IMG/VR virus record: IMGVR_UViG_3300045988_062587
Source: a virus
Strand: one strand, 5' to 3'
Length of the DNA stretch: 55,142 nt
The notes beneath the pieces were generated by a model that did not search any database, was not told the DNA's origin, and was given only the letters and a program-made list of their open reading frames with translations. Each line of letters opens with the position of its first letter. Within the stretch, counting starts at the first letter, position 1. Below, piece by piece: positions 3,656 to 36,071 of this stretch. A program made the position numbers and the translations under genes.

Positions 3656-5566
3656 TCACCAGTCGTCCAATAGGCTCTCCCTCTTTTTTCTGTGGGAGGG
3701 CTGTGGTTGTTGAATGTTTACTGCTGCCGGGGCATCGACCGCCTTTCCACGCAGCCTTTTCAGGGCACGGTCGATGGCATCGAGGTCTTTCGGCAGCACC
3801 TTGTAGGCTGCCAAAGCGTAGTTCCGGCAGTCAAGTGCCTCGTTTCGCTCGTGGCCGGAGATTTTCTCCCATTGCCACGGATTGCGGTGGTTCTCTTTGT
3901 ACACCAGATGTTCGGACAACAGGCCGTTGAAATAGCTCAGCCCGTAGTCATCCCGGCGTGGGAAATGGCAATACCGGGCGCCCGGCTCCTGCACTTTCAA
4001 ATCATCCATGATGATTTGCTTGCCGGAATCAACGCCCAGCTGGTATTGCCAGCACATACCGACGTAGCGGTTCTGTATCGTGATTTTCTGCTGCTTGGGC
4101 GGAGCCGTGAACGGCCTGTCCGAGCCGGGAAAGCCTTTGATGCAGAACACCTTTTTGCCGATGCGCTCATGGCAGCGGAGGCGAACATCCTGCGTGAAGT
4201 GGCCGCCCTCGTCCACGAACTTTATGGACACGGGCAGTTCCACGCCATCGGCGAATTTCAGGCGACGGTCGAATACCAGTTCATCAAGCTGCTGCCAGAC
4301 CTCGTCACTGTCCGGGCGGCCCATGATGATGCCTTTTTCGATGCCCCACGTTTCACCGAAGTGGCCGAAGCCCACGATTTCGTACTCCATGCGGTCATCC
4401 TGTGTGTCAACGCCAGCAGTCAGAACCAGCACGCCGTCCGGCAGTTCCGCAGGGTATTCCTCCCTGCGGCCCAGCATGGTGTCCTCGTCCTGCACATCGC
4501 CGCGGTCTTCCCACAACAGGCCCAGCCGGGTGTTGTACACGACCTGCATCTTCTTCGTATCGCCCAGTGCGTTCAGGTATTTCAGCACGGTTTCTTTCCA
4601 TGCAGCCCACTGGGAAACAAAGCTGTTCAGCCAGAAAGAACGGATGCCGTTCTCGTAGGCTGCCGGATTCTCTGCTTGCCAGTGCGCAGGCGCACGTTTC
4701 ATGGTCACTTCGTCCGAAATGCAGCCGCACTCCGGGCAGAGATACCACACATCGTTGACCTTGTAGGTCTTTTCGCCGTGAACCTCGATGGTGTCATACT
4801 CGTACCGAATATCTTCCCAGCGCAGTTCGTGGAATCCCTTGCAGTGTGGACACTGCGACACCCAGCGTTCCATCGTGCCTTTGACGTAGGCCTTGGCGAT
4901 TGCGCTGTGACCTTTGATTGTCGGGGTGGAAACCTCGACCGCCTTTGCGTTGTAGAACGTGGTCTGCCGGGCCATTGCCAGTTCCCACGGGTCGCCCTCA
5001 GTGCCGGCACTCGTAGCCCAGCGGTCACGTTCATCGCCCAGCACATAGCGGATGGGTTTCGATGCCAAAGCGTGCGCCTCGGTGGAGCCGCACATGGTCA
5101 GGATGCCGCCGGGGTAAGACTTCTGCAGAATGGTGTTGCCGCTGTCTCGGCTCTTGCTCTCTGCTACCTTTGCCCGCAGGGTAGGACAGTCTCGTATCAT
5201 GGGAGCGATACGCAGCTTGCTGTACTCCTTGGCATCAGTCTGAACCGGGTGGATAAAAAGGATAGATCCGGGGTCAACGTCAATCGTTCTGCCGATGACA
5301 TTGTTTTCAAATTCGCTCTTGCCGACCTGCGAGGACGCAACGACAACAATGTGATGGACGCGAGGGTCAGAGTATGCGTCCATGATTTCCACCAGATAGG
5401 GCGTTCTGCTGTTGCGCCAGCGGCCTTGTTCAGCAGATGCTTCCGGGGACAGGACGCGGTTTTGTGCTGCCCACTCGCTGACGGACATATTGGGCGGGGG
5501 CCGGATAGCTGCCACCAGCTTTGACACCAGAGCATTCAGACGGTCAACCGCTGCATTCTCACTCAT
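3656..5566 (-). CDS. terL: Terminase large subunit, lambda gpA family
   Basis: Walker-A-like VVVASSQVGKSE and a CxxC...CxxC zinc motif (CPHCKG...CPECG). The likely start, MSENAAV at 5566, overlaps the terS stop (ATGAGTGA). The ORF track extends to 5623. Confidence 0.9.
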   Translation of the reverse strand: MSENAAVDRLNALVSKLVAAIRPPPNMSVSEWAAQNRVLSPEASAEQGRWRNSRTPYLVEIMDAYSDPRVHHIVVVASSQVGKSEFENNVIGRTIDVDPGSILFIHPVQTDAKEYSKLRIAPMIRDCPTLRAKVAESKSRDSGNTILQKSYPGGILTMCGSTEAHALASKPIRYVLGDERDRWATSAGTEGDPWELAMARQTTFYNAKAVEVSTPTIKGHSAIAKAYVKGTMERWVSQCPHCKGFHELRWEDIRYEYDTIEVHGEKTYKVNDVWYLCPECGCISDEVTMKRAPAHWQAENPAAYENGIRSFWLNSFVSQWAAWKETVLKYLNALGDTKKMQVVYNTRLGLLWEDRGDVQDEDTMLGRREEYPAELPDGVLVLTAGVDTQDDRMEYEIVGFGHFGETWGIEKGIIMGRPDSDEVWQQLDELVFDRRLKFADGVELPVSIKFVDEGGHFTQDVRLRCHERIGKKVFCIKGFPGSDRPFTAPPKQQKITIQNRYVGMCWQYQLGVDSGKQIIMDDLKVQEPGARYCHFPRRDDYGLSYFNGLLSEHLVYKENHRNPWQWEKISGHERNEALDCRNYALAAYKVLPKDLDAIDRALKRLRGKAVDAPAAVNIQQPQPSHRKKRESLLDDW

Positions 5567-6131
5567 CGTCGTCACCAGCCAGCTTTTCAGCCCACGCCTT
5601 GCGTTCACGGACACGGGCCTCATACTTTGCCGGGTCGTAACGGAACATGGCGATTTCCTCGGCTATCTGATTCACCTCGCCACGCATATACTCTGCCACC
5701 TCTGCCGGGTCAGACAGAGCAGCCGCATTGATGGCAACACGGCTGGGCAGCGCCATCAGCGCACCCCGGACGGTGTAGATAAGCTCAGAGGTCATAGCGG
5801 CCACATCCTCACTGCGGTGCATCTGCCCGGACAGCTCTTTTGCCTCAGCTTGAGCGATTTTCGCTTTGCTGGCTTTGAGCGTAGCTTCTGCTTTCTGCTT
5901 GATGTGGTCCAGCTTTTTGGCCTCTGCCGCTTCCTCTTTGGTCAGCCCGCCACGGGCAGTGCTGGCATTGTAGGCCTGCACTGCGTCACCAAGGACAAAT
6001 TTTCCTCGACTGACGGTGGTGAGCACCCCATCCTGTGTGAGCTGCTGCACCCTGCGGTTCGTGATGCCCAGCACGGCGGCCAGTTGGGTGGTGGTCACAG
6101 TCATGTCAGCAACTCTTTCTTTTGTCGGCAT
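5559..6131 (-). CDS. terS: Terminase small subunit, Nu1-like (N-terminal wHTH)
   Basis: N-terminal HTH (TTTQLAAVLGITNRRVQQLTQDGVL), a coiled-coil middle region, a position immediately upstream of terL, and a strong RBS (AAGGAGGTGG). Confidence 0.65.
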   Translation of the reverse strand: MPTKERVADMTVTTTQLAAVLGITNRRVQQLTQDGVLTTVSRGKFVLGDAVQAYNASTARGGLTKEEAAEAKKLDHIKQKAEATLKASKAKIAQAEAKELSGQMHRSEDVAAMTSELIYTVRGALMALPSRVAINAAALSDPAEVAEYMRGEVNQIAEEIAMFRYDPAKYEARVRERKAWAEKLAGDDDE

Positions 6132-6442: not shown

Positions 6443-6970
6443 TCAGATGCTGCGGATAACCTTGGCCTTAGAGTATGTCGGATGGTCTTTGGTCATCATG
6501 TTCAGAAACTCGTCTTTGGTGAAGCCGGACAGACGGAAGATCTCTTCGGGCTTCATGCCCAGCTGCTTGCCGATCTCGTCCACGGTCTTGCCCTCGTCCA
6601 TAAGCTTCTTCACGATGGCTTTCATGGGGTCGAGCAGGTGTGTGCCGCGGGCTCGGTTGTGTGTGATGGTGCCGTATACATCGGCACTCTCGTCACCGTG
6701 ATGGTCTACGACTACGACAGGCACCTTGCCGCCCAGCAGGGACAGCAGCGGTTCACGGCCTGATACTGTCCAGCGGTGGAAGCCGTCAATGATGGTTCCG
6801 TCCGGGCGTACCACGATGGGCAGCGTCCAGCCGTTGGTCAGAATGGACTGCACCAGCAGCTTCAGGTTCTCCTCACTGACCTTGTTGGGGTTGTAGTCGT
6901 TGGCGTGGATGGTGTTGCGGTCTACCCACTGGAGGGATGCCAGCGGTGCGAATACGTCAATGTTTTCCAT
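6443..6970 (-). CDS. IbrB-like ParB/sulfiredoxin-domain protein
   Basis: Starts MENIDVF at 6970. Motifs HANDYNPNKV and IIDGFHRW (DGxHR) are typical of IbrB-type ParB N-terminal domains. It overlaps the PAPS-reductase gene by 14 nt. Confidence 0.7.
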   Translation of the reverse strand: MENIDVFAPLASLQWVDRNTIHANDYNPNKVSEENLKLLVQSILTNGWTLPIVVRPDGTIIDGFHRWTVSGREPLLSLLGGKVPVVVVDHHGDESADVYGTITHNRARGTHLLDPMKAIVKKLMDEGKTVDEIGKQLGMKPEEIFRLSGFTKDEFLNMMTKDHPTYSKAKVIRSI

Positions 6971-8105
6971 GGTTCTGCTCCTCCTTGATGCGGGCGTTGT
7001 GGTCGTTGTAGATGGTGGTCCAGAGGATGCGCAGGATACGCATCTTGGGATCTCCGTACAGCAGCCCCTCATACATGGTCTTGTAGTGCTTCTGTTCAGC
7101 GATACCATAGGTCTTTATGAACAGGCCTCGCCAGTGGTCGATGTGGGATAAGGTGTCCTTGGCGATGGTGTACCGCTCCGGGTGGAGGAACAGCAGGTCT
7201 TTGCAGAGGGCTTTATAATCCTTCTGTTCGGTATCTGCTTCCAGCTCACGCCGCTTGCGGGTGCTGCGCCGGAACATCTCGGAATCCCAATAAAGCAGAA
7301 CGAGGTAGGCGTTTGGCTCTCGCCGCTGGATACGCTCCCACAGGTCGTTGTCGGTTTCTGCAACCCACCGTAGGCCTTGTGTGCTGGTATCTCCAAAGAA
7401 AGCGCAAAGCCGGAGTGCATTTTTATGCACACCAGCTTCGTACAAACGCATATAGATTTCAGGGAATTCAAGGTTTCGCTCTTTGATGTACAGCCAAACA
7501 TCGGAATCAGCCCAATCGTAGATGGGATAGAACTTGCCGCCTTTTGTGATACGCTCCATTTTGGTGTTGGCGATACACTTAAAGCGGGTCAGGCTTTCTG
7601 CTGTGCGCAGGCCGACCAGCTGAATGCCGTCGCGGAACGCCTTTTCGCAGAACGTCTGGTAGTTCATCTCTCCGGGGTGGTGCAGGTATGGGCTGTACCT
7701 GATGGCAAAATCTGGCGGGGTACGCATCCACACATCTTCTTTGCCAGGCTCCCATGTTATCCACGATTCTGACGCGGAAAGGTGGTCTATCACGCACACC
7801 TGCTTGAACGGCAAGCAAAACCATAAGAATTTCGCGCCGACCGACAGGAAGTTGCGCCGCCAGCGGTGTGCTGCATCGACCATGGAGGGGTAAAGTCCTT
7901 CCTCGTCAATGAACGTCACCGTCAGCTGCTTGGGGTCGAGCTCTCCGGAGAGAATCATCTCATACACGAGATTGGCCATGCACAGGCTGTCCTTGCCAGA
8001 GGAAAACGACAGATAGATTTTGCAGCCGTTTGCGAACACATTGCGGATACGGATTTTCGCCGCCCGCAGCACGTTCATGCTGCTTTCCACTACTTTCACA
8101 GGCAT
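6957..8105 (-). CDS. PAPS-reductase-family PP-loop ATPase, IbrA/DndC-like
   Basis: PP-loop motif YLSFSSGKDS near the N-terminus and a long helical C-terminal extension like IbrA. It overlaps both flanking ParB-like genes. Confidence 0.8.
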   Translation of the reverse strand: MPVKVVESSMNVLRAAKIRIRNVFANGCKIYLSFSSGKDSLCMANLVYEMILSGELDPKQLTVTFIDEEGLYPSMVDAAHRWRRNFLSVGAKFLWFCLPFKQVCVIDHLSASESWITWEPGKEDVWMRTPPDFAIRYSPYLHHPGEMNYQTFCEKAFRDGIQLVGLRTAESLTRFKCIANTKMERITKGGKFYPIYDWADSDVWLYIKERNLEFPEIYMRLYEAGVHKNALRLCAFFGDTSTQGLRWVAETDNDLWERIQRREPNAYLVLLYWDSEMFRRSTRKRRELEADTEQKDYKALCKDLLFLHPERYTIAKDTLSHIDHWRGLFIKTYGIAEQKHYKTMYEGLLYGDPKMRILRILWTTIYNDHNARIKEEQNHGKH

Positions 8106-8779
8106 ATCAGTTCACCGCACTTCGGGCAACGGATGCACCTGTGCTGTTCCACGCCGCTGTCCGCCTCTGGAGCAGCTGTTTGCGGTTCAGAAGGTGTAGA
8201 CTCCTCCAGCACTGTGGAGGGCTGCTGCGGGGCAGCGGAGACGGTAGGAGTAGGCTGCGGGGCGGGAGCCACCGGGTAGGTCGGTGTTTCGGTATACGGA
8301 ACATGTTCCTCTGCCTGATGGCGGTTGATGGGTGCGATCTCGTTTTCCGGGAAATCGCCGTAGGAGCTGATTACTTCATCAGCTTCATCCGTGGTGCTGT
8401 TCAGCATTTCCAGCAGGTCAGCATCCCAGCCCGGAACGTCCACATCGCCGTCCAGTTCCTTGACCAGTTCTTCGATGGCATCCACATCGGTAAAGCCGAG
8501 TTCATAGACCTTGTTGTCAGCCATCATCAGCTTTTTCTTCTGCACATCGGTCAGCCCGACCATCACATAACAGTCGCAGGTTTCCCGACCCATGCGGAGC
8601 AGGGCTTCGTACAGACCGTTGCCGGCAATGATTTCGCCATCCTCGGCAACGACCAGCGGCTTCACCTGACCGAACATCTCAATGCTGCGGATGTACTCGG
8701 TGATTTGCTTGTCGGAGTGCCGGCGGATGTTGTGGGTAGGCTTATGCAGCTCTGCCAGCTTCTTTACCGTGATGTTCAT
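8096..8779 (-). CDS. ParB-like N-terminal domain protein with a C-terminal CxxC..CxxC-like tail
   Basis: ParB-type core (HSDKQI..SI..FGQVKPLVV...IIAGNGLYEAL), a Pro/Thr-rich linker, and a C-terminal CIRCPKCGELICL. Confidence 0.7.
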   Translation of the reverse strand: MNITVKKLAELHKPTHNIRRHSDKQITEYIRSIEMFGQVKPLVVAEDGEIIAGNGLYEALLRMGRETCDCYVMVGLTDVQKKKLMMADNKVYELGFTDVDAIEELVKELDGDVDVPGWDADLLEMLNSTTDEADEVISSYGDFPENEIAPINRHQAEEHVPYTETPTYPVAPAPQPTPTVSAAPQQPSTVLEESTPSEPQTAAPEADSGVEQHRCIRCPKCGELICL

Positions 8780-9777
8780 CGTGCGGCCTCCTTCCTGTCA
8801 GAAACGAGGTCCAGAACGATGGAGAACAGGACGGCGGCTACGACAATGTAGATGCGGATCGTGCTCATCAGCTGCCAGATGCCCATAACGCCAAGCGGAA
8901 TCAGGATCTGCCACGAGGCCACGGTGAGAACATCCAGCGCAAAGCCAAACTTCTTGCCGAAAACCAGATATTCGCAGTAGAGGTAGGTGGACAGCGAGGA
9001 AATGGCAATAACCGTAATCAGGATGGCTTTCATCACATTCAGCATCGGGCTGAACCGCACCCAAGTGAGCAGCGCAGCCAGCACCATGTAGATGCCGAAC
9101 ATCACGCCAGCCAGCACAAAGGCCTTCTTCATGTCGCCGTGCCGTGTACCGTCCGTGTTTCCATCGTTGTACTCAAACAGCGAATAGTAATACGGGCAAG
9201 CGAACGGACCGGGCAGTAAAAGCAGCCCATTGTACACGCCAGCTTTGATGCCAGCAACATTCACGCCGGGATCAATGGCAGCGAACGTGCCGCCAGTGTA
9301 AACCAGAGCGGCTACAACTACTACGGCCAGCAGGCCATAAACGACCACCCATGAAAAACCATCGGACAGCACGTTGCGAATCATGCCATCTTTGAGCAGC
9401 ATAATCAGGAACGCCACGCAGGTGACGTACACGATAATCATGCCGCCCTTGGTTCCAATGGGTGTATCGCCGAAGATCTCGTAGATGCCGCTCATCTGCG
9501 TCCACGTCTGAAACAGCGTCAGCAGGCCGATGAAATAGAACATCACCTTGCTCTGCATGATGCGCCGGATGGACGGAACACGGTCAGCGAACAGGCCGAA
9601 TGTGATACACGCCAGAGAATTGAACACCGCCCAGATGATTGCCGGAACTGCGCCGTATCGCAATGCAATGGTACGGAAGTTCATCAGACTGCCCACTCCC
9701 GCCCACGATGCGACAATGGAGCAGGCGTAGAAAATAGTGGGGTTTGCCTTGAATTTTGCCTTGATTTTCTGATACAT
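8776..9777 (-). CDS. Polytopic integral membrane protein (possible transporter), family not recognised
   Basis: About nine to ten hydrophobic segments by eye. The likely start, MYQKIKAKF at 9777, has a GAAGGAGA RBS. Its stop overlaps the ParB start by 4 nt. The ORF track extends to 9921. Confidence 0.7.
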   Translation of the reverse strand: MYQKIKAKFKANPTIFYACSIVASWAGVGSLMNFRTIALRYGAVPAIIWAVFNSLACITFGLFADRVPSIRRIMQSKVMFYFIGLLTLFQTWTQMSGIYEIFGDTPIGTKGGMIIVYVTCVAFLIMLLKDGMIRNVLSDGFSWVVVYGLLAVVVVAALVYTGGTFAAIDPGVNVAGIKAGVYNGLLLLPGPFACPYYYSLFEYNDGNTDGTRHGDMKKAFVLAGVMFGIYMVLAALLTWVRFSPMLNVMKAILITVIAISSLSTYLYCEYLVFGKKFGFALDVLTVASWQILIPLGVMGIWQLMSTIRIYIVVAAVLFSIVLDLVSDRKEAAR

Positions 9778-9905
9778 AGAAAAATCTCCTTCTTTGCGGC
9801 TGGACACGGCGAAATGTCCAGCTTGCAGCACCTCGGCTTTTCGGGGTGCTGCGGTGATGCCACACGCAAAGGAGCAACGTGCGGCCCGGAATCCTCCTTT
9901 CAGGC
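9778..9905 (-). promoter_or_regulatory. Structured 5' leader of the membrane-protein operon (three stem-loops)
   Basis: Inverted repeats at 9800-9821 (7 bp), 9825-9852 (8 bp) and 9868-9900 (7 bp; AAAGGAG/CTCCTTT). Confidence 0.3.
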
Positions 9906-9944
9906 AATAAAATAGCGGCACCCACCGGGAATGGTGAGCACCGC
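9906..9944 (-). terminator. Intrinsic-terminator-like hairpin plus U-tract upstream of the late operon
   Basis: Minus strand: GCGGUGCUCACC-auuccc-GGUGGGUGCCGC (12 pairs including G-U) followed by UAUUUUAUU. Confidence 0.5.
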
Positions 9945-9971
9945 TTGGCTTGATTTGAATTTTGCATCCTA

Positions 9972-10000
9972 ATCATATCACCGGGAGCATCCGTTGTCAT
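9972..10000 (-). promoter_or_regulatory. Candidate late promoter (ATGACA-N17-TGaTATGAT)
   Basis: On the minus strand, the -35 is ATGACA (10000-9995), the spacer is 17 nt, and there is an extended -10 TGaTATGAT (9980-9972). The predicted start is about 20 nt before the terminator hairpin. Confidence 0.4.
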
Positions 10001-10017
10001 CTGAATCCATATCAAAG

Positions 10018-10061
10018 CGTTGCTGGTCGTTGACTTTCGTTCTTCTTCGTTGCTGGTCGTT
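10018..10061. repeat. Direct repeat CGTTGCTGGTCGTT x2 (10018-10031, 10048-10061), 30-nt period
   Basis: Exact 14-mers read directly from the sequence, lying just upstream of the candidate -35. Confidence 0.8.
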
Positions 10062-10086: not shown

Positions 10087-10127
10087 CCGTGTGAAACCGT
10101 CCTACACCGTCCACCACCGTGTGAAAC
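10087..10127. repeat. Direct repeat CCGTGTGAAAC x2 (10087, 10117) with CCGT phased every 10 nt (10087, 10097, 10107, 10117)
   Basis: Read directly: gCCGTgtgaaaCCGTcctacaCCGTccaccaCCGTgtgaaac. Confidence 0.8.
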
Positions 10128-10285: not shown

Positions 10286-10681
10286 TCAATGTGATTCGAG
10301 GTAGTTGTAGGCCATCCGGCTGACCCCGGCTTCCGTGTAGCACTTTCCGAGTGCTCCGGCAACTTCTGCCCACGAGTAGCAGCGGACAAACCGCAGCCGG
10401 AAGATCAGATAAAGCCGGGCATCCATGATGCTCTTGCAGTACGCCTCGACCTTGGGCTTTTCTTCCGCTGCCTGTTCCTCCAACCAGCGGACACGTTCAT
10501 CCATGTCAGCCAGTTCCACAGCCAGATCCGCCACCTTGTCCCGAACACCGGGCGTATGTGGCATACCCGTCAGCTGTGGGGAGGCAGGATTGATTTTCTG
10601 CCGAAGATTCTCCAAGGCCTCACGGTCTTTTTCGAGGGTCATCTGAATGTCATAATACTTTGACAATTCCTGTAATGTCAC
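10286..10681 (-). CDS. Putative late-gene transcriptional regulator (ArpU/RinA/DUF1492-like, sigma-70 region-4-like HTH)
   Basis: LTGMPHTPGVRDKV motif and a C-terminal LIFRLRFVRCYSWAEVAGALG...SRMAYNYL HTH. It is the last early gene before the late region. Confidence 0.5.
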   Translation of the reverse strand: MTLQELSKYYDIQMTLEKDREALENLRQKINPASPQLTGMPHTPGVRDKVADLAVELADMDERVRWLEEQAAEEKPKVEAYCKSIMDARLYLIFRLRFVRCYSWAEVAGALGKCYTEAGVSRMAYNYLESH

Positions 10682-13287: not shown

Positions 13288-13632
13288 TTACTCCTCTCCC
13301 AGCTGGGCAAGGATCTCGTTGCCCTTGTCCATCAGTTCATCCCGCCGTTTTTTCTGCTCAGCCTCCAGCTTTTCCATTTCCGCCTGATACTTTTTCAGAG
13401 TTCCCGGCCGGAAATTCTTGCTCTTGCCCATGCGGATTTTTGCGGCAATTTTCTTGTGCTGCTGAACGGTCTGGCGCAGTTCGGTGTCCGTGGTCAGAAT
13501 CTGGTAGCGATGGTGGCAGCCAGGGCAGGTGAAATACTGCACCATGTAGTCGCCGCTCCATGTGGCGCGGATGCCGGCGGTCTGGATGCTGAACGGCGTA
13601 CCGCAGCGGTCACACTTTACAAGGTCGGTCAT
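13288..13632 (-). CDS. Zinc-ribbon protein with a basic coiled-coil tail
   Basis: CDRCG...CPGCH followed by a Lys/Glu-rich helix. ATGA overlap with the ParB stop. Confidence 0.6.
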   Translation of the reverse strand: MTDLVKCDRCGTPFSIQTAGIRATWSGDYMVQYFTCPGCHHRYQILTTDTELRQTVQQHKKIAAKIRMGKSKNFRPGTLKKYQAEMEKLEAEQKKRRDELMDKGNEILAQLGEE

Positions 13633-15185
13633 TCGCCATACTCCTTTCTGCACAGCTGGAACGCATTGCAGTGGTCATCGCAAGTTTTGCAGCACTTGTC
13701 GCATTCAGGGTGAGCAGCTTTGCACTTATCGCAGGGCGTGTCAGCCTGGCTGCCGGAACCATACACCGCAAAAAGCTGGTGGGTGCCGTCTTGCAAAGCC
13801 TTTTCATCATCGGCCATTTCGTAACCGAGTGCAGCGAGCAGTTCATAGGTGCTGTCAAGGTCATCATTTTTGCGGTGAACGAACTTGCTCGCGCCTGTCG
13901 GCCCGTTCCATTCCGTGCTCCAATAACCCTCACGACTGCTGTCCGTTGCATCAAAAGCAACCGCCAGTAGAATCTTCTCCGGCTCGGTATCGTAAGCATT
14001 GAACATTTTCAGGGCATCTTCCAGTTCCGTGTCTTCCCGAATCTGCTCATCCAGACCGATGCCGAGCAGCTGCAACACATTTTCGTCGTCCTCCATGTGC
14101 CGATATTCGGTCAGAACCGGGGTGGAATAAGCCAAGATTTCCGGCAGGTGCTTTCTGCACTCTGTGGGAGTCAGGTTTTTCACGAAGTCCCAGCGCAGCT
14201 CATACATGAGCTTCGTGACGGCGGCAAACTGTTCTCTCGCAAGCTTCTCGGTGGCTCTTGCGGCTTCTCTCGCTGAGTTGCTGGCATCCTCGGCATCCGT
14301 ATCGCGAGGTTTATACAGGTCAATCTGATTTTCACTGACCTTATAGACATAAGCAACCTTGTCGGCATCTTCCGGCATGATGACTTCCTTTTTTGTGCCC
14401 CATTTGCCATACGCATTTACGTGTTCGTGTGTCTGGTAGGTGGCCTGTGAATCTTCCACGGCGAATTTTTTGAGCTGCTCAATCCATTCGGCCTTTTGGT
14501 GCTGCCATTTTTGCTGTTCCAGCGCATCCTGCATAGCCCTGTTGAAGTTCTGGGTGCCGAGGGTCTCCAACACCCGGTTTCTGGCTTCCAAGTCCTCGAT
14601 TTTGTCCAGCTGGGCGAAGTCAGACAGGGTTGCACCGCGCTTTTCGGCTTTCTTGAAGCTGTCGTGGTTCAGTTCCAGCAGCTTGATACGCCGCCGAACG
14701 GTGGACTGTGAGAAGCCGGATTTGTCGGAGATCTGCTCCACGGTCTGCCCAAAGTCCATCATCATCTGGAAGCCCTGAGCCTGTTCGTAGACGGTGAGGT
14801 CTGACCGCTGCATATTCTCCACCATCATGGTCTGCATCTGCTCCCGCTCATCCATCTCAACGATGGCGCAGGGCAGCTCGTAAAGCCCGGCCTGCTGCGC
14901 TGCCGCTGCCCGGCGATGGCCGATGATGATGGTGTAGTCGTCACCCACCCACATAACCTTGGGAGCCCATGCTGCTGCGGCGGCGGCTGCATCGCCGCCC
15001 TCGTCAACGCACTTGCTGATGTACTCCCGGCTGCTGAGGTAGTGGCCGGGAATGACCGTCAGGTTCTGGTACACGCCGTTTTCCTTGATGCTGGCCGCCA
15101 ACTCGGACAGGTCGCCCAGCTCCTTGCGGGGGTTATCCGGGTGCGGGTGAAGCTGCCGGATAGGGATATAAGTAATGTCTGCCAT
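13629..15185 (-). CDS. ParB-like nuclease-domain protein (518 aa) with a Cys-rich C-terminus
   Basis: ParB N-terminal motifs (IRQLHPHPDNPRK, IIIGHRRAAAA), an HTH (QISDKSGFSQSTVRRRIKL), and a C-terminal CDKCKAAHPECDKCCKTCDDHC. Confidence 0.8.
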   Translation of the reverse strand: MADITYIPIRQLHPHPDNPRKELGDLSELAASIKENGVYQNLTVIPGHYLSSREYISKCVDEGGDAAAAAAAWAPKVMWVGDDYTIIIGHRRAAAAQQAGLYELPCAIVEMDEREQMQTMMVENMQRSDLTVYEQAQGFQMMMDFGQTVEQISDKSGFSQSTVRRRIKLLELNHDSFKKAEKRGATLSDFAQLDKIEDLEARNRVLETLGTQNFNRAMQDALEQQKWQHQKAEWIEQLKKFAVEDSQATYQTHEHVNAYGKWGTKKEVIMPEDADKVAYVYKVSENQIDLYKPRDTDAEDASNSAREAARATEKLAREQFAAVTKLMYELRWDFVKNLTPTECRKHLPEILAYSTPVLTEYRHMEDDENVLQLLGIGLDEQIREDTELEDALKMFNAYDTEPEKILLAVAFDATDSSREGYWSTEWNGPTGASKFVHRKNDDLDSTYELLAALGYEMADDEKALQDGTHQLFAVYGSGSQADTPCDKCKAAHPECDKCCKTCDDHCNAFQLCRKEYGE

Positions 15186-34717: not shown

Positions 34718-35889
34718 GGCACTCTACCTCCAAAAATTGCATAGCAAAGCCGCCGCAGACGCAGCAGCCGCCCATGGTCATCAAAATTTTTATAGTAGGC
34801 TTCTTGGCAGTTCATATACTGCGCTACCTCCTGCAGGGTACGTTTCCCGGCCAGCCATTCACGGTGGAACAGCTTCAGTTTCCTCCGTGCGCGTATCACG
34901 CCGTCACGACTACCATTGACTTTGATTTTCCCGGTCTCGGTCAAGGTAAAACGAGCCTTGCACCAGCGGAAAGGCTTTGTCAGAGGGATGATCTTGCATT
35001 TCTTCTTGTTGACCGGGATGCCGCGGATTTCAAACTGGCGCACGATAGCGCGGCCCAGCTTTTTCAGATCTTCGATATCCGGGAGAATGATGCAGTAATC
35101 ATCCATGTAGTGTCCGGCGCTATGCGTGGACATCTGGCATTTGATCCAGTTGTCCACAGCACTGGGCATTGCCGCCATTTCTTGTTGGCTCGGCTCAACG
35201 CCCAGCGGCATCCCACGGCCCGGAAATTCGCCGGGAGCAGTATCAATAATGGTATCTGCTATCCGCCGAAAATCAGGGTTCAGGATATACCGCTGGTGCC
35301 GCTGATAGATGATAGAATGGGGTGCATAAGGAAAGAACTTCTTCAGGTCGAGCAGCAACACCCCGCCCGCACGGCCATACTTGCGGTAATGCCGTGCCAG
35401 CTGCTGTTTGATGCGCTTGATCTGCCAGTGCAGTCCCTTACCAATCCGGCTTGCACCGTTGTCATAGATCATGCTGGGGTCGTAAAGCGGCTCCAACACT
35501 TCCTTGCTGATGACCTTGTGGATTTGTCGGTCTGTAATATGAGGAGCGTCAATCCCACGAATCTTGCCGCGTTCGCAGACCGTGAAATGAACGTATTTCT
35601 TAGGCCGCCACCTTTTGGCCAAAATAAGCCGCCGCTGCTTCGCTGTGTGGGAAAACAGATGCCGCTCAAAGTTCTGCGTGCTCTGCTTCCAGCGTACACC
35701 GTTGCAGCATTTCCGGCCATATTTGAACATCGTGTGGTAACTGAATACTTCTCCCAACGAACCGAGGGCGGCACAACGAGCTTCCTGTCTGGCTCGGCGT
35801 GCTGCCCGGCGGCGCTGGTATCGTGCTTCATGGCGCTCCTGACTTGTCATAAAAGTATTCGCTCCTCGTACAGATGAATTGTAGGGCAT
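34669..35889 (-). CDS. DGR reverse transcriptase
   Basis: Catalytic HYMDDYCII, the DGR-typical GxxxSQ motif (GVEPSQ), and LLLDLKKFF. The more likely start is the ATG at 35850 (MTSQERHEA, GAGGAG upstream). Confidence 0.9.
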   Translation of the reverse strand: MPYNSSVRGANTFMTSQERHEARYQRRRAARRARQEARCAALGSLGEVFSYHTMFKYGRKCCNGVRWKQSTQNFERHLFSHTAKQRRLILAKRWRPKKYVHFTVCERGKIRGIDAPHITDRQIHKVISKEVLEPLYDPSMIYDNGASRIGKGLHWQIKRIKQQLARHYRKYGRAGGVLLLDLKKFFPYAPHSIIYQRHQRYILNPDFRRIADTIIDTAPGEFPGRGMPLGVEPSQQEMAAMPSAVDNWIKCQMSTHSAGHYMDDYCIILPDIEDLKKLGRAIVRQFEIRGIPVNKKKCKIIPLTKPFRWCKARFTLTETGKIKVNGSRDGVIRARRKLKLFHREWLAGKRTLQEVAQYMNCQEAYYKNFDDHGRLLRLRRLCYAIFGGRVPCSTKSSKPVMAPSLP

Positions 35890-36071
35890 CGTCTAATCTG
35901 CTTTATGCCGGCACATGAAACGCGGTAAGATGCATCCCGCGCCATGCAAGAAGCGTCCGTGTCAGCATATCGAAAAGCAGTTTTAGAGGTTTGACCCTCA
36001 GGGAAGTACCTCTCCTTTTGCTATGGTCGTCTTTCACCTATGGCTACTCCATGTGACCAAGCATTGCAAAA

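Follow-up and report, generated by a model that had tools for sequence, protein, structure and literature searches.

The 55,142-nucleotide viral DNA of IMG/VR record IMGVR_UViG_3300045988_062587, referred to at its full length as the window, carries on its minus strand (positions 6443-9777) a cassette of four overlapping genes that encode a transporter, two ParB-type proteins and a PP-loop enzyme of the phosphoadenosine phosphosulfate (PAPS) reductase family. The enzyme belongs to the IbrA/YbdN (COG3969) clade, its DUF3440 domain being short and divergent, and sulfate assimilation by the CysH mechanism can, as far as its sequence family tells, be firmly excluded. Tentatively, we regard the cassette as a late module for the modification of nucleic acid.

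Phage genes annotated as 'PAPS reductase/cysH' are among the most often reported viral auxiliary metabolic genes (AMGs) and serve as an argument that viruses of the gut and the environment reprogramme sulfur metabolism. Phage PAPS reductases figure as sulfur AMGs in recent literature (10.1101/2021.01.05.425418; 10.64898/2026.02.18.706556), with DNA modification mentioned as a mere possibility (PMC13551039). For the IbrA/COG3969 clade the sulfur reading is chemically untenable, since the clade has no conserved cysteine. The module is tightly conserved with ParB-type partners, its version in phages of anaerobes adds a dedicated transporter, and hundreds of sequenced actinophages, as well as E. 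coli K-12 (ybdNM), possess related pairs.

The PP-loop enzyme and its ParB-type partners

The four genes were re-derived from a six-frame listing of open reading frames (ORFs) and by direct translation:

8776-9777, minus strand: transporter gene, first of the cassette; 333 amino acids (aa), ten helices, LeuT fold (APC superfamily, SLC5/SSS-like); ATG at 9777 after AAGGAG
8096-8779, minus strand: ParB1 gene, second of the cassette; 227 aa, acidic protein of the ParB/Srx fold
6957-8105, minus strand: PP-loop enzyme gene; 382 aa, IbrA/YbdN-type (COG3969) PP-loop ATP pyrophosphatase
6443-6970, minus strand: gene of the IbrB-type ParB, last of the cassette; 175 aa, ParB N-domain followed by a helix-turn-helix (HTH)

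The genes overlap by 4 nt (ATGA) at the transporter/ParB1 junction, by 10 nt between ParB1 and the enzyme and by 14 nt between the enzyme and the IbrB-like protein, and a strong Shine-Dalgarno (SD) sequence is found at three of the four start codons.

The PP-loop of the enzyme, SFSSGKDS, occupies residues 33-40. In Pfam, PF01507 (PAPS_reduct) matches at 4e-11 over residues 159-222 only, and in PHROG the family phrog_2302 covers the full length (8e-93). The NCBIfam models for CysH, adenosine phosphosulfate (APS) reductase, CysD and DndC reach 16-36 bits against cut-offs of 154-536, with 19-22 bits against 154-165 for the cysH models and 16 bits against 290 for the DndC model TIGR03183. The PADLOC search for known defence systems gave marginal matches to DndC/BrxP and MTase_II only. 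An exhaustive HMMER search yielded 1093 representatives of the enzyme family at 50% clustering, and an alignment of 40 sequences was made from the window protein and 39 relatives at 23-50% identity to it, all 40 of them matched by PF01507. Invariant in this alignment are S35, K38 and S40 of the PP-loop as well as D67, E69, W126, G165, E170, S171, R174, D202, W204, Y218, R232 and R262. No cysteine is invariant across the 40 sequences; the best conserved one, C97, is kept in 33, and the motifs ECGxH, CGxH and CxxC are absent from the window enzyme.

The CysH mechanism is thioredoxin-dependent and runs through a thiosulfonate on a C-terminal cysteine. Since no cysteine is conserved in its family, the enzyme cannot, on the evidence of the alignment, work by this mechanism, nor can it work like DndC. 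PP-loop chemistry without cysteine consists of ATP alpha-phosphate transfer, either as adenylylation of a phosphate- or sulfate-type acceptor (CysD, FMN adenylyltransferase) or as adenylation of a carbonyl or carboxylate, which an amine then attacks (TilS, QueC, NadE, GuaA). As a cysteine-less PP-loop ATP pyrophosphatase of the IbrA/YbdN clade, the enzyme should catalyse adenylyl transfer or adenylation, not thiol-dependent sulfonucleotide reduction or sulfur insertion of the DndC type.

The enzyme is composed of a PAPS_reduct-family N-domain (residues ~1-225) and a basic (pI 9.0), all-helical C-domain, a divergent DUF3440 (residues ~225-382). Its AlphaFold2 model (predicted local distance difference test, pLDDT, 87) has fold matches in the PDB over the first ~230 residues only, and these are of a generic PP-loop kind (NcsA, PAPS and APS reductases, FMN adenylyltransferase/FAD synthase, TilS, TtuA, CysD, GMP synthetase and LarE); the PDB fold search found no counterpart of the C-domain. 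The Pfam model of DUF3440 gives no direct match to the window enzyme. DUF3440 (PF11922) is present in 18 of the 40 aligned sequences (best E 3.5e-52), and a comparison of C-domain profiles aligns these DUF3440 bearers with the window's subfamily over 130 columns (hhalign probability 98.5%, E 2.7e-15). The top fold match among viral models in BFVD, to a COG3969 protein, extends over the whole enzyme (368 columns, query TM-score, TMq, 0.61).

The IbrB-like protein is matched by ParB_N of Pfam (PF02195) with 27 bits, above the cut-off, and by phrog_2159 (8e-72) and TIGR00180; the motifs NDYNPN and DGFHRW are both present. In a sequence search of the PDB its residues 21-139 align with Spo0J of T. 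thermophilus (1vz0), HTH included, and over 69 relatives it is strongly conserved along its whole length, including NDYNPN, DGFHRW and HNRARG. It is probably a DNA-binding, possibly nucleoside triphosphate (NTP)-dependent partner of the enzyme.

ParB1 is of a different make. It matches the ParB-like family phrog_620 at 2e-47, phrog_498 (the ParB N-domain of phage DNA methyltransferases) at 5e-28 and MTase_II of PADLOC at 2e-16, and the sequence search of the PDB gave a weak match to Spo0J and sulfiredoxin. The protein is very acidic (pI 4.5, net charge -22). At the position of the GxxR motif it reads GNGL, with leucine in place of arginine in 71 of 73 relatives, and G53, N54, G55 and L56 are each kept in 71-73 of the 73. 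Its C-terminal CPxCG knuckle (C218, P219, C221, G222), preceded by an acidic, low-complexity linker rich in Pro, Thr and Glu, is kept in 71-72 of these relatives. ParB1 would appear to serve as an adaptor or in regulation, not in catalysis. The same PDB sequence search found no close solved structure for the enzyme, ParB1 or the IbrB-like protein. Several database proteins look like fusions of neighbouring genes, for example P0008 and P0103 (PAPS_reduct+ParB_N) and P0145 and P0203 (transporter+ParB_N). Genuine fusions would, in Rosetta-stone fashion, point to a physical association of the proteins; they were not used as evidence, because with overlaps of 4-14 nt a single indel or assembly error would create such fusions.

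An initial annotation of the window had described four overlapping genes upstream of the terminase genes, an IbrA/IbrB-type pair marked by SFSSGKDS, NDYNPN and DGFHRW, and an enzyme that is not a sulfur AMG. The overlaps and motifs are as described, with the terminase gene terS 311 nt on; the pairing is borne out by the DUF3440 carriers in the alignment, the C-domain profile comparison and the COG3969 fold match; and the lack of ECGxH, CxxC and any invariant cysteine agrees with the view on sulfur. The likeness to DndC that it had also drawn is weak, and a phosphorothioation mechanism of that kind is unlikely: cysteines like those of DndC are absent, and so are a partnering P-loop NTPase and a cysteine desulfurase. 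Of the profiles it had named, those for PAPS_reduct and the ParB domain matched (the latter as ParB_N), while DUF3440 was found only by way of the subfamily profile.

Transporter linkage and conservation of the cassette

No family in Pfam, PHROG, NCBIfam or PADLOC matches the window transporter. Its AlphaFold2 model (pLDDT 86, predicted TM-score, pTM, 0.85) has ten helices in a LeuT fold, and Foldseek against the PDB places human CHT1 (the SLC5 choline transporter) first, at TMq 0.65, followed by CAT, ApcT, AdiC and Nramp. The label 'transporter' is thus supported by the model at the level of the fold. There are 579 homologues in the database, without a Pfam domain. At other related loci the slot is filled by a full-length protein of the sodium:solute symporter (SSS) family, ~460 aa long (PF00474 4e-23, TIGR00813 5e-34). 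The short and the SSS-type transporters have ordered motifs in common and a weak profile similarity (hhalign E 0.034, low probability). Assignment of the short form to the SSS family itself (PF00474/TIGR00813) was rejected for want of a Pfam or NCBIfam match, the profile-profile comparison being suggestive at most. No cellular context hinting at a substrate was found among the best 120 SSS-type homologues (all at least 67% identical), which look like phage or prophage copies, and the two homologue contexts examined are both prophages.

A longer transporter ORF of 381 aa, starting from GTG at 9921, was likewise rejected: the ATG at 9777 has an SD sequence and fits the N-termini of homologues, and the part upstream of it is a structured leader. 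This leader (9778-9921, minus strand) is in frame with the transporter gene, and some database entries give longer N-termini (351-438 aa), which are probably artefacts of the GC-rich structured leader.

To see how constant the cassette is, 80 IMG/VR loci were compared whose enzymes are 43-100% identical to that of the window; many of these loci are near-duplicates, so that the counts are not independent events, though enzyme identity reaches down to 43%. Within the reach of each contig, the genes of ParB1, enzyme and IbrB stand side by side in 80 of 80, and no related viral locus with enough downstream sequence lacks an IbrB-like gene. Upstream of ParB1, 72 loci have 2.4 kb of sequence or more, and in 71 of them a LeuT-fold transporter is encoded there, 39 times as the short form and 32 times as the SSS type. 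In 37 of the 72 loci a second PAPS_reduct protein of ~262 aa, with the motif AWSAGKDS, is encoded between transporter and ParB1; this gene is absent from the window and from the related phage Taranis. Its carriers include L025, L027, L034, L043, L059-L061, L064-L078, L092 and L093 (e.g. L059:3620-4408), and many copies of the protein end in a CGTHPWP motif that recalls the ECGLH motif of CysH.

In bacteria, sampled as one-genome-per-species assemblies (GTDB), the short transporter occurs in 52 species, mostly Oscillospiraceae and other gut and rumen Clostridia, with further carriers in Phascolarctobacterium, Selenomonas, Oribacterium, Sedimentibacter and Treponema metagenome-assembled genomes. 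In all 44 genome loci with downstream sequence it is followed by an optional small PAPS_reduct gene, ParB1, enzyme and IbrB, usually then by terS and the second terminase gene, terL. Since in these 44 informative loci it was never found outside the cassette, the short transporter is a dedicated cassette component.

The position beside the packaging genes is also conserved. The cassette directly precedes the terminase in all Oscillospiraceae-type loci that extend far enough downstream. In Mycobacterium phage Bernardo a ParB-PAPS-ParB triad (gp1, gp4, gp5) directly precedes the terminase gp6, and in Arthrobacter phage Edmundo gp4-6 form such a triad, followed by a methyltransferase, terS and terL. 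The second ParB, which had been taken as an addition particular to the window, is therefore shared with these actinophages. By tblastn the enzyme was found in 223 phage records, and phages of Streptococcus thermophilus and Flavobacterium have a simple annotated IbrA+IbrB pair.

The window is nearly identical to the IMG/VR contig UViG_3300045988_044968 (L006), with 100% identity across the enzyme gene, and is related to the temperate Faecalibacterium phages Taranis and Pioen, showing 84% nucleotide identity to Taranis over the region. Ratios of nonsynonymous to synonymous substitution (dN/dS) against Taranis are 0.17, 0.10, 0.065 and 0.057 for transporter, ParB1, enzyme and IbrB-like protein; by this measure all four genes are maintained by purifying selection. 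The Taranis GenBank record of 2018 already labels the four genes, as 'transporter membrane protein', 'nuclease protein' and 'co-activator of prophage gene expression' IbrA and IbrB (in RefSeq, ParB-like partition proteins and phosphoadenosine phosphosulfate reductase), and the gene set itself is therefore not a new sighting. New here are the lack of an invariant cysteine, the conservation of the triad, the linkage to the transporter, the optional second PAPS_reduct protein and the conserved leader. In the literature that could be searched we found no earlier description or analysis of a version that combines the core pair with a second, acidic ParB, an obligate transporter of the LeuT fold and, as an option, a further PP-loop enzyme. 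A search of the literature on IbrA/IbrB, DUF3440, PAPS reductase with ParB, and anti-defence turned up neither a functional study of the module nor, in keeping with the initial annotation, an established product of IbrAB-type pairs.

Leader, expression and neighbouring genes

The cassette lies between a gene for a RinA-like activator and the terminase genes, and the upstream region contains a series of signals:

10286-10681: RinA-like activator gene, 508 nt upstream of the transporter gene
10280-10259, minus strand: rinA terminator, within the 508-nt region between rinA and transporter
9778-10000, minus strand: leader of the cassette and late operon, with promoter-like element, hairpins, pseudo-SD and true SD
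10000-9972, minus strand: promoter-like element ATGACA-17-TATGAT with TG extension
after the promoter-like element: G(T/C)AAAAT element, nearly invariant across divergent phages
9945-9914, minus strand: strong terminator-like hairpin with U-run
9900-9893, minus strand: pseudo-SD AAAGGAGG
9884-9860, minus strand: hairpin with anti-SD-like loop UUGCUCCUUUG (UUnCUCCUUUG)
9852-9825, minus strand: further hairpin
9822-9801, minus strand: hairpin with conserved loop AUUUCGCC (UUCGCC loop motif)
9791-9786, minus strand: true SD of the transporter gene
5559-6131: terS (phrog_57), beginning 311 nt downstream of the cassette
3656-5623: terL of the gpA type (PF05876/PF20454), after terS

This leader layout is common to the loci with short-type and with SSS-type transporters, and it recurs in L003, L021, L022, L028-L030, L038, L041, L046-L050, L061, L062 and L083. 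In an RNAalifold comparison of 16 divergent leaders, the terminator hairpin and the hairpin with the anti-SD-like loop are kept, with compensatory changes at 13 of 16 pairs. The leader may represent a late-operon promoter with a -10-like element and a terminator, as in late promoters controlled by antitermination, followed by translational control of the first gene. Because of this late-type leader, and because no terminator-like site is found in the 311-nt gap between ibrB and terS, the cassette appears to stand at the head of the late (packaging) transcript. The leader could also be a riboswitch. As to known riboswitches, Rfam (E-value mode) found no family in the 508-nt leader region, and hence no transporter ligand can be read from one.

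Between the rinA terminator and the promoter-like element the DNA is AT-rich and contains direct repeats. Two perfect pairs, each with 30-nt spacing, lie at 10018-10061 and 10087-10127 (CGTTGCTGGTCGTT and CCGTGTGAAAC, twice each); the RinA-like activator may bind at them.

At the other end of the cassette, terS shows no synonymous divergence from its Taranis counterpart (L001 4782-5354; dS = 0), whereas the adjacent cassette genes have a dS of 0.5-0.85, a sign that recombination has recently taken place, with a boundary between ibrB and terS. Two small Taranis ORFs of this gap (DUF6275 and a 53-aa ORF) are missing from the window. Further upstream, at 13629-15185 (minus strand), lies a gene for a third ParB-domain protein of 518 aa, with an N-terminal ParB box of the HPDNPRK type and a cysteine-rich C-terminus; its Taranis counterpart is located in the early region, two genes downstream of an N6 DNA methylase gene, and a pairing of N6_Mtase with ParB_N is seen again upstream of the cassette in a Vallitaleaceae prophage (L091). 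Over the whole window the only Rfam match was RT-2 RNA (35841-36061, minus strand; 175 bits, E 3e-42), an RNA linked to reverse transcriptases of diversity-generating retroelements (DGRs). This agrees with the Taranis annotation, which includes a DGR with its reverse transcriptase and a target gene.

Proposed function and comparison with known systems

Our best explanation, put forward tentatively, is that the cassette may be a late module that uses ATP to couple an imported small molecule to nucleic acid, likeliest to replicated phage DNA before packaging, as an anti-restriction or identity mark. The transporter would supply the group for attachment, and the PP-loop enzyme would adenylate either the imported compound or a base carbonyl, so that both could be joined. 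IbrB, with its DGxHR-motif ParB N-domain and HTH, would bind DNA, possibly as an NTP-gated clamp or as a partner NTPase, in a role like that of DpdB with DpdA or CysN with CysD. The acidic ParB1, which has a ParB domain of the methyltransferase type and lacks the motif arginine, would serve as adaptor, not as catalyst. Nucleic acid is proposed as the target because one ParB partner carries an HTH, the second is of the methylase type, the terminase is adjacent, expression appears to be late and there is a vibriophage precedent. In that case, a fusion of a PAPS domain with Dam and an adjacent gene of unknown function, transferred together, rendered a vibriophage resistant to the Dnd system of its host (bioRxiv 10.1101/2021.05.05.442762; summarised in PMC13551039). 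Nucleotidyl-transferring enzymes are among the best fold matches of the PP-loop enzyme, two different LeuT-fold forms occupy the same slot of the cassette, and an N6-methylase and third ParB gene lie upstream in the early region, all of which supports this proposal.

Several points weigh against it. The case for DNA as the substrate of the cassette is circumstantial, and among the characterised PP-loop enzymes with nucleic-acid substrates most work on tRNA. The strong acidity of ParB1 is unusual in a DNA-binding protein, and no modification of Taranis DNA is reported in the literature searched. The IbrA/IbrB pairs of Streptococcus and Flavobacterium phages and E. coli YbdNM occur without a transporter, so the core reaction cannot depend on an imported compound in every case. 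A more specific form of DNA modification, which we consider rather unlikely, would be a hypermodification of unknown type in which an amine, amino acid or carboxylate supplied by the importer is joined to a base by adenylation, guided by a ParB clamp, on concatemers before packaging. Such a reaction would correspond, on DNA, to the formation of lysidine by TilS or to a QueC-type amidation, and the leader with its anti-SD hairpins might sense the same metabolite.

Among the alternatives, a role in regulating or assisting late transcription or packaging is doubtful but carries the most weight. The ParB-type proteins would load as NTP-gated clamps near cos/pac or the late promoter, with the PP-loop enzyme as a nucleotide-dependent switch, and the annotation lineage 'co-activator of prophage gene expression IbrA/IbrB', the ParB HTH of IbrB, the place of the cassette between the RinA-like activator and terS/terL, and its position before the terminase in Bernardo, Edmundo and the Oscillospiraceae-type loci would all fit. 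It leaves unexplained, however, the linked transporter and the second PAPS_reduct enzyme of about half of the relatives; the pair of Flavobacterium phage 23T is not annotated beside a terminase, and the invariant residues of catalytic type (SGGKDS, DEE, ES..R) argue for real turnover. Somewhat less probable is a small-molecule module of counter-defence or metabolism that is independent of DNA: an imported compound would be adenylylated or amidated to give a cofactor or signal, or an immune signal or nucleotide of the host would be destroyed, with the ParB/Srx proteins as NTPases or phosphotransferases in the manner of sulfiredoxin. The obligatory transporter of the lineage would then be accounted for, FMN adenylyltransferase and CysD are small-molecule enzymes of the PAPS_reduct fold, and ParB1 is acidic and lacks the arginine of the DNA/NTP motif. 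Yet IbrB keeps the DNA-binding HTH of ParB proteins, the domain type of ParB1 is the one fused to DNA methylases, and the core pair is widespread without any transporter.

The remaining explanations are much less probable. Modification of RNA or tRNA with an imported amine or amino acid, as by TilS, ThiI, TtcA or NcsA, which would retune late translation, is given only a slight chance: NcsA, TtuA and TilS are among the best structural neighbours, but no RNA-binding domain (THUMP, PUA etc.) was detected, the enzyme is partnered by ParB-type proteins whose HTH is of the DNA type, and no linkage of the cassette to tRNA genes was observed. Phosphorothioation (PT) of DNA of the Dnd/Ssp/BREX-4 type, or its mimicry as an escape from PT-dependent restriction, would cast the enzyme as DndC/SspD and IbrB as DndB. 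The DGxHR motif of IbrB presumably resembles that of DndB, and there are weak PADLOC and NCBIfam matches to DndC and BrxP (E ~1e-5 to 4e-3), every one of them far under the family cut-off (16 bits vs 290). A phage PAPS-domain protein has helped to counter Dnd (bioRxiv 10.1101/2021.05.05.442762), and PT systems are common among gut bacteria (PMC12914056). The enzyme nevertheless has no conserved cysteine, whereas DndC has a characteristic cysteine dyad (PMC10853773), and neither the cassette nor the annotated Taranis genome contains a cysteine desulfurase or a P-loop NTPase partner (DndD/SspC/BrxC), although PMC12914056 identifies PT synthesis by a PAPS-domain protein together with a P-loop NTPase. 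Because cysteines, NTPase partner and desulfurase are all lacking, PT of this type is, on the gene content, unlikely, and we would give it hardly more credence than tRNA modification. A bona fide sulfur-assimilation AMG, that is a PAPS/APS reductase making sulfite, has next to no probability. The Pfam and PHROG names speak for it, as does the treatment of phage cysH, including the DUF3440 clade, as a sulfur AMG (bioRxiv 10.1101/2021.01.05.425418; 10.64898/2026.02.18.706556). Opposed to this are the lack of a C-terminal ECGxH catalytic cysteine and of any invariant cysteine in the family, NCBIfam scores for cysH, APS-reductase and CysD far under the cut-offs (19-36 bits vs 154-396), a PF01507 match limited to residues 159-222, and the obligatory linkage of the enzyme to two ParB proteins.

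Taranis, Pioen and their Faecalibacterium hosts are cultured, and the question is hence directly testable. If true, the proposed coupling of an imported compound to nucleic acid would be a phage nucleic-acid modification or counter-defence of a new type; even a negative outcome would correct a widespread annotation.

The closest known relatives are E. coli IbrA/IbrB and YbdN/YbdM of strain K-12, which share with the window a PAPS_reduct N-domain, a C-domain of the DUF3440 type and an adjacent, translationally coupled small ParB-like protein. Pairs of the IbrA/IbrB kind are, like the cassette, found on prophages or other mobile elements and are biochemically uncharacterised; ybdNM of E. coli is chromosomal and repressed by a LysR-type regulator (PMC9068703). 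The window enzyme differs from IbrA/YbdN in its shorter, divergent C-domain, missed by Pfam, and its lineage has the second, acidic ParB and the LeuT-fold transporter as obligate additions. The actinophage triads (Bernardo gp1/4/5, Edmundo gp4-6), whose enzymes are 26-28% identical to that of the window (tblastn), have the same order of ParB, PAPS_reduct-like protein and ParB directly upstream of the terminase. They are likewise uncharacterised but have no transporter, come from hosts among the Actinobacteria and, in Edmundo, have a methyltransferase between triad and terS.

DndB/DndC, SspD and BrxP resemble the cassette in combining a PAPS_reduct-family PP-loop protein with a ParB-superfamily protein (DndB), theirs acting on DNA. 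The window enzyme, in contrast to DndC, SspD and BrxP, has no cysteine dyad or cysteines of the Fe-S type, is not accompanied by a DndD/SspC/BrxC NTPase or a desulfurase, and shows marginal profile similarity to them. The PAPS-domain::Dam protein of Vibrio phage (Piel et al.; bioRxiv 10.1101/2021.05.05.442762) likewise is a phage protein with a PAPS_reduct domain, tied in its case to a DNA function and to counter-defence. It is a single methylase fusion without ParB partners, DUF3440 or transporter, and is likened to the cassette by the shared domain. DpdA and DpdB, the latter ParB-like, insert 7-deazaguanine into DNA, and CysD is an adenylyltransferase of the PAPS_reduct fold driven by the GTPase CysN. 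Both are precedents, by analogy only, for an enzyme that handles bases or nucleotides and depends on an NTPase partner; the cassette has no tRNA-guanine transglycosylase (TGT) and no GTPase, and its proteins are related in sequence to these systems only at the level of the superfamily.

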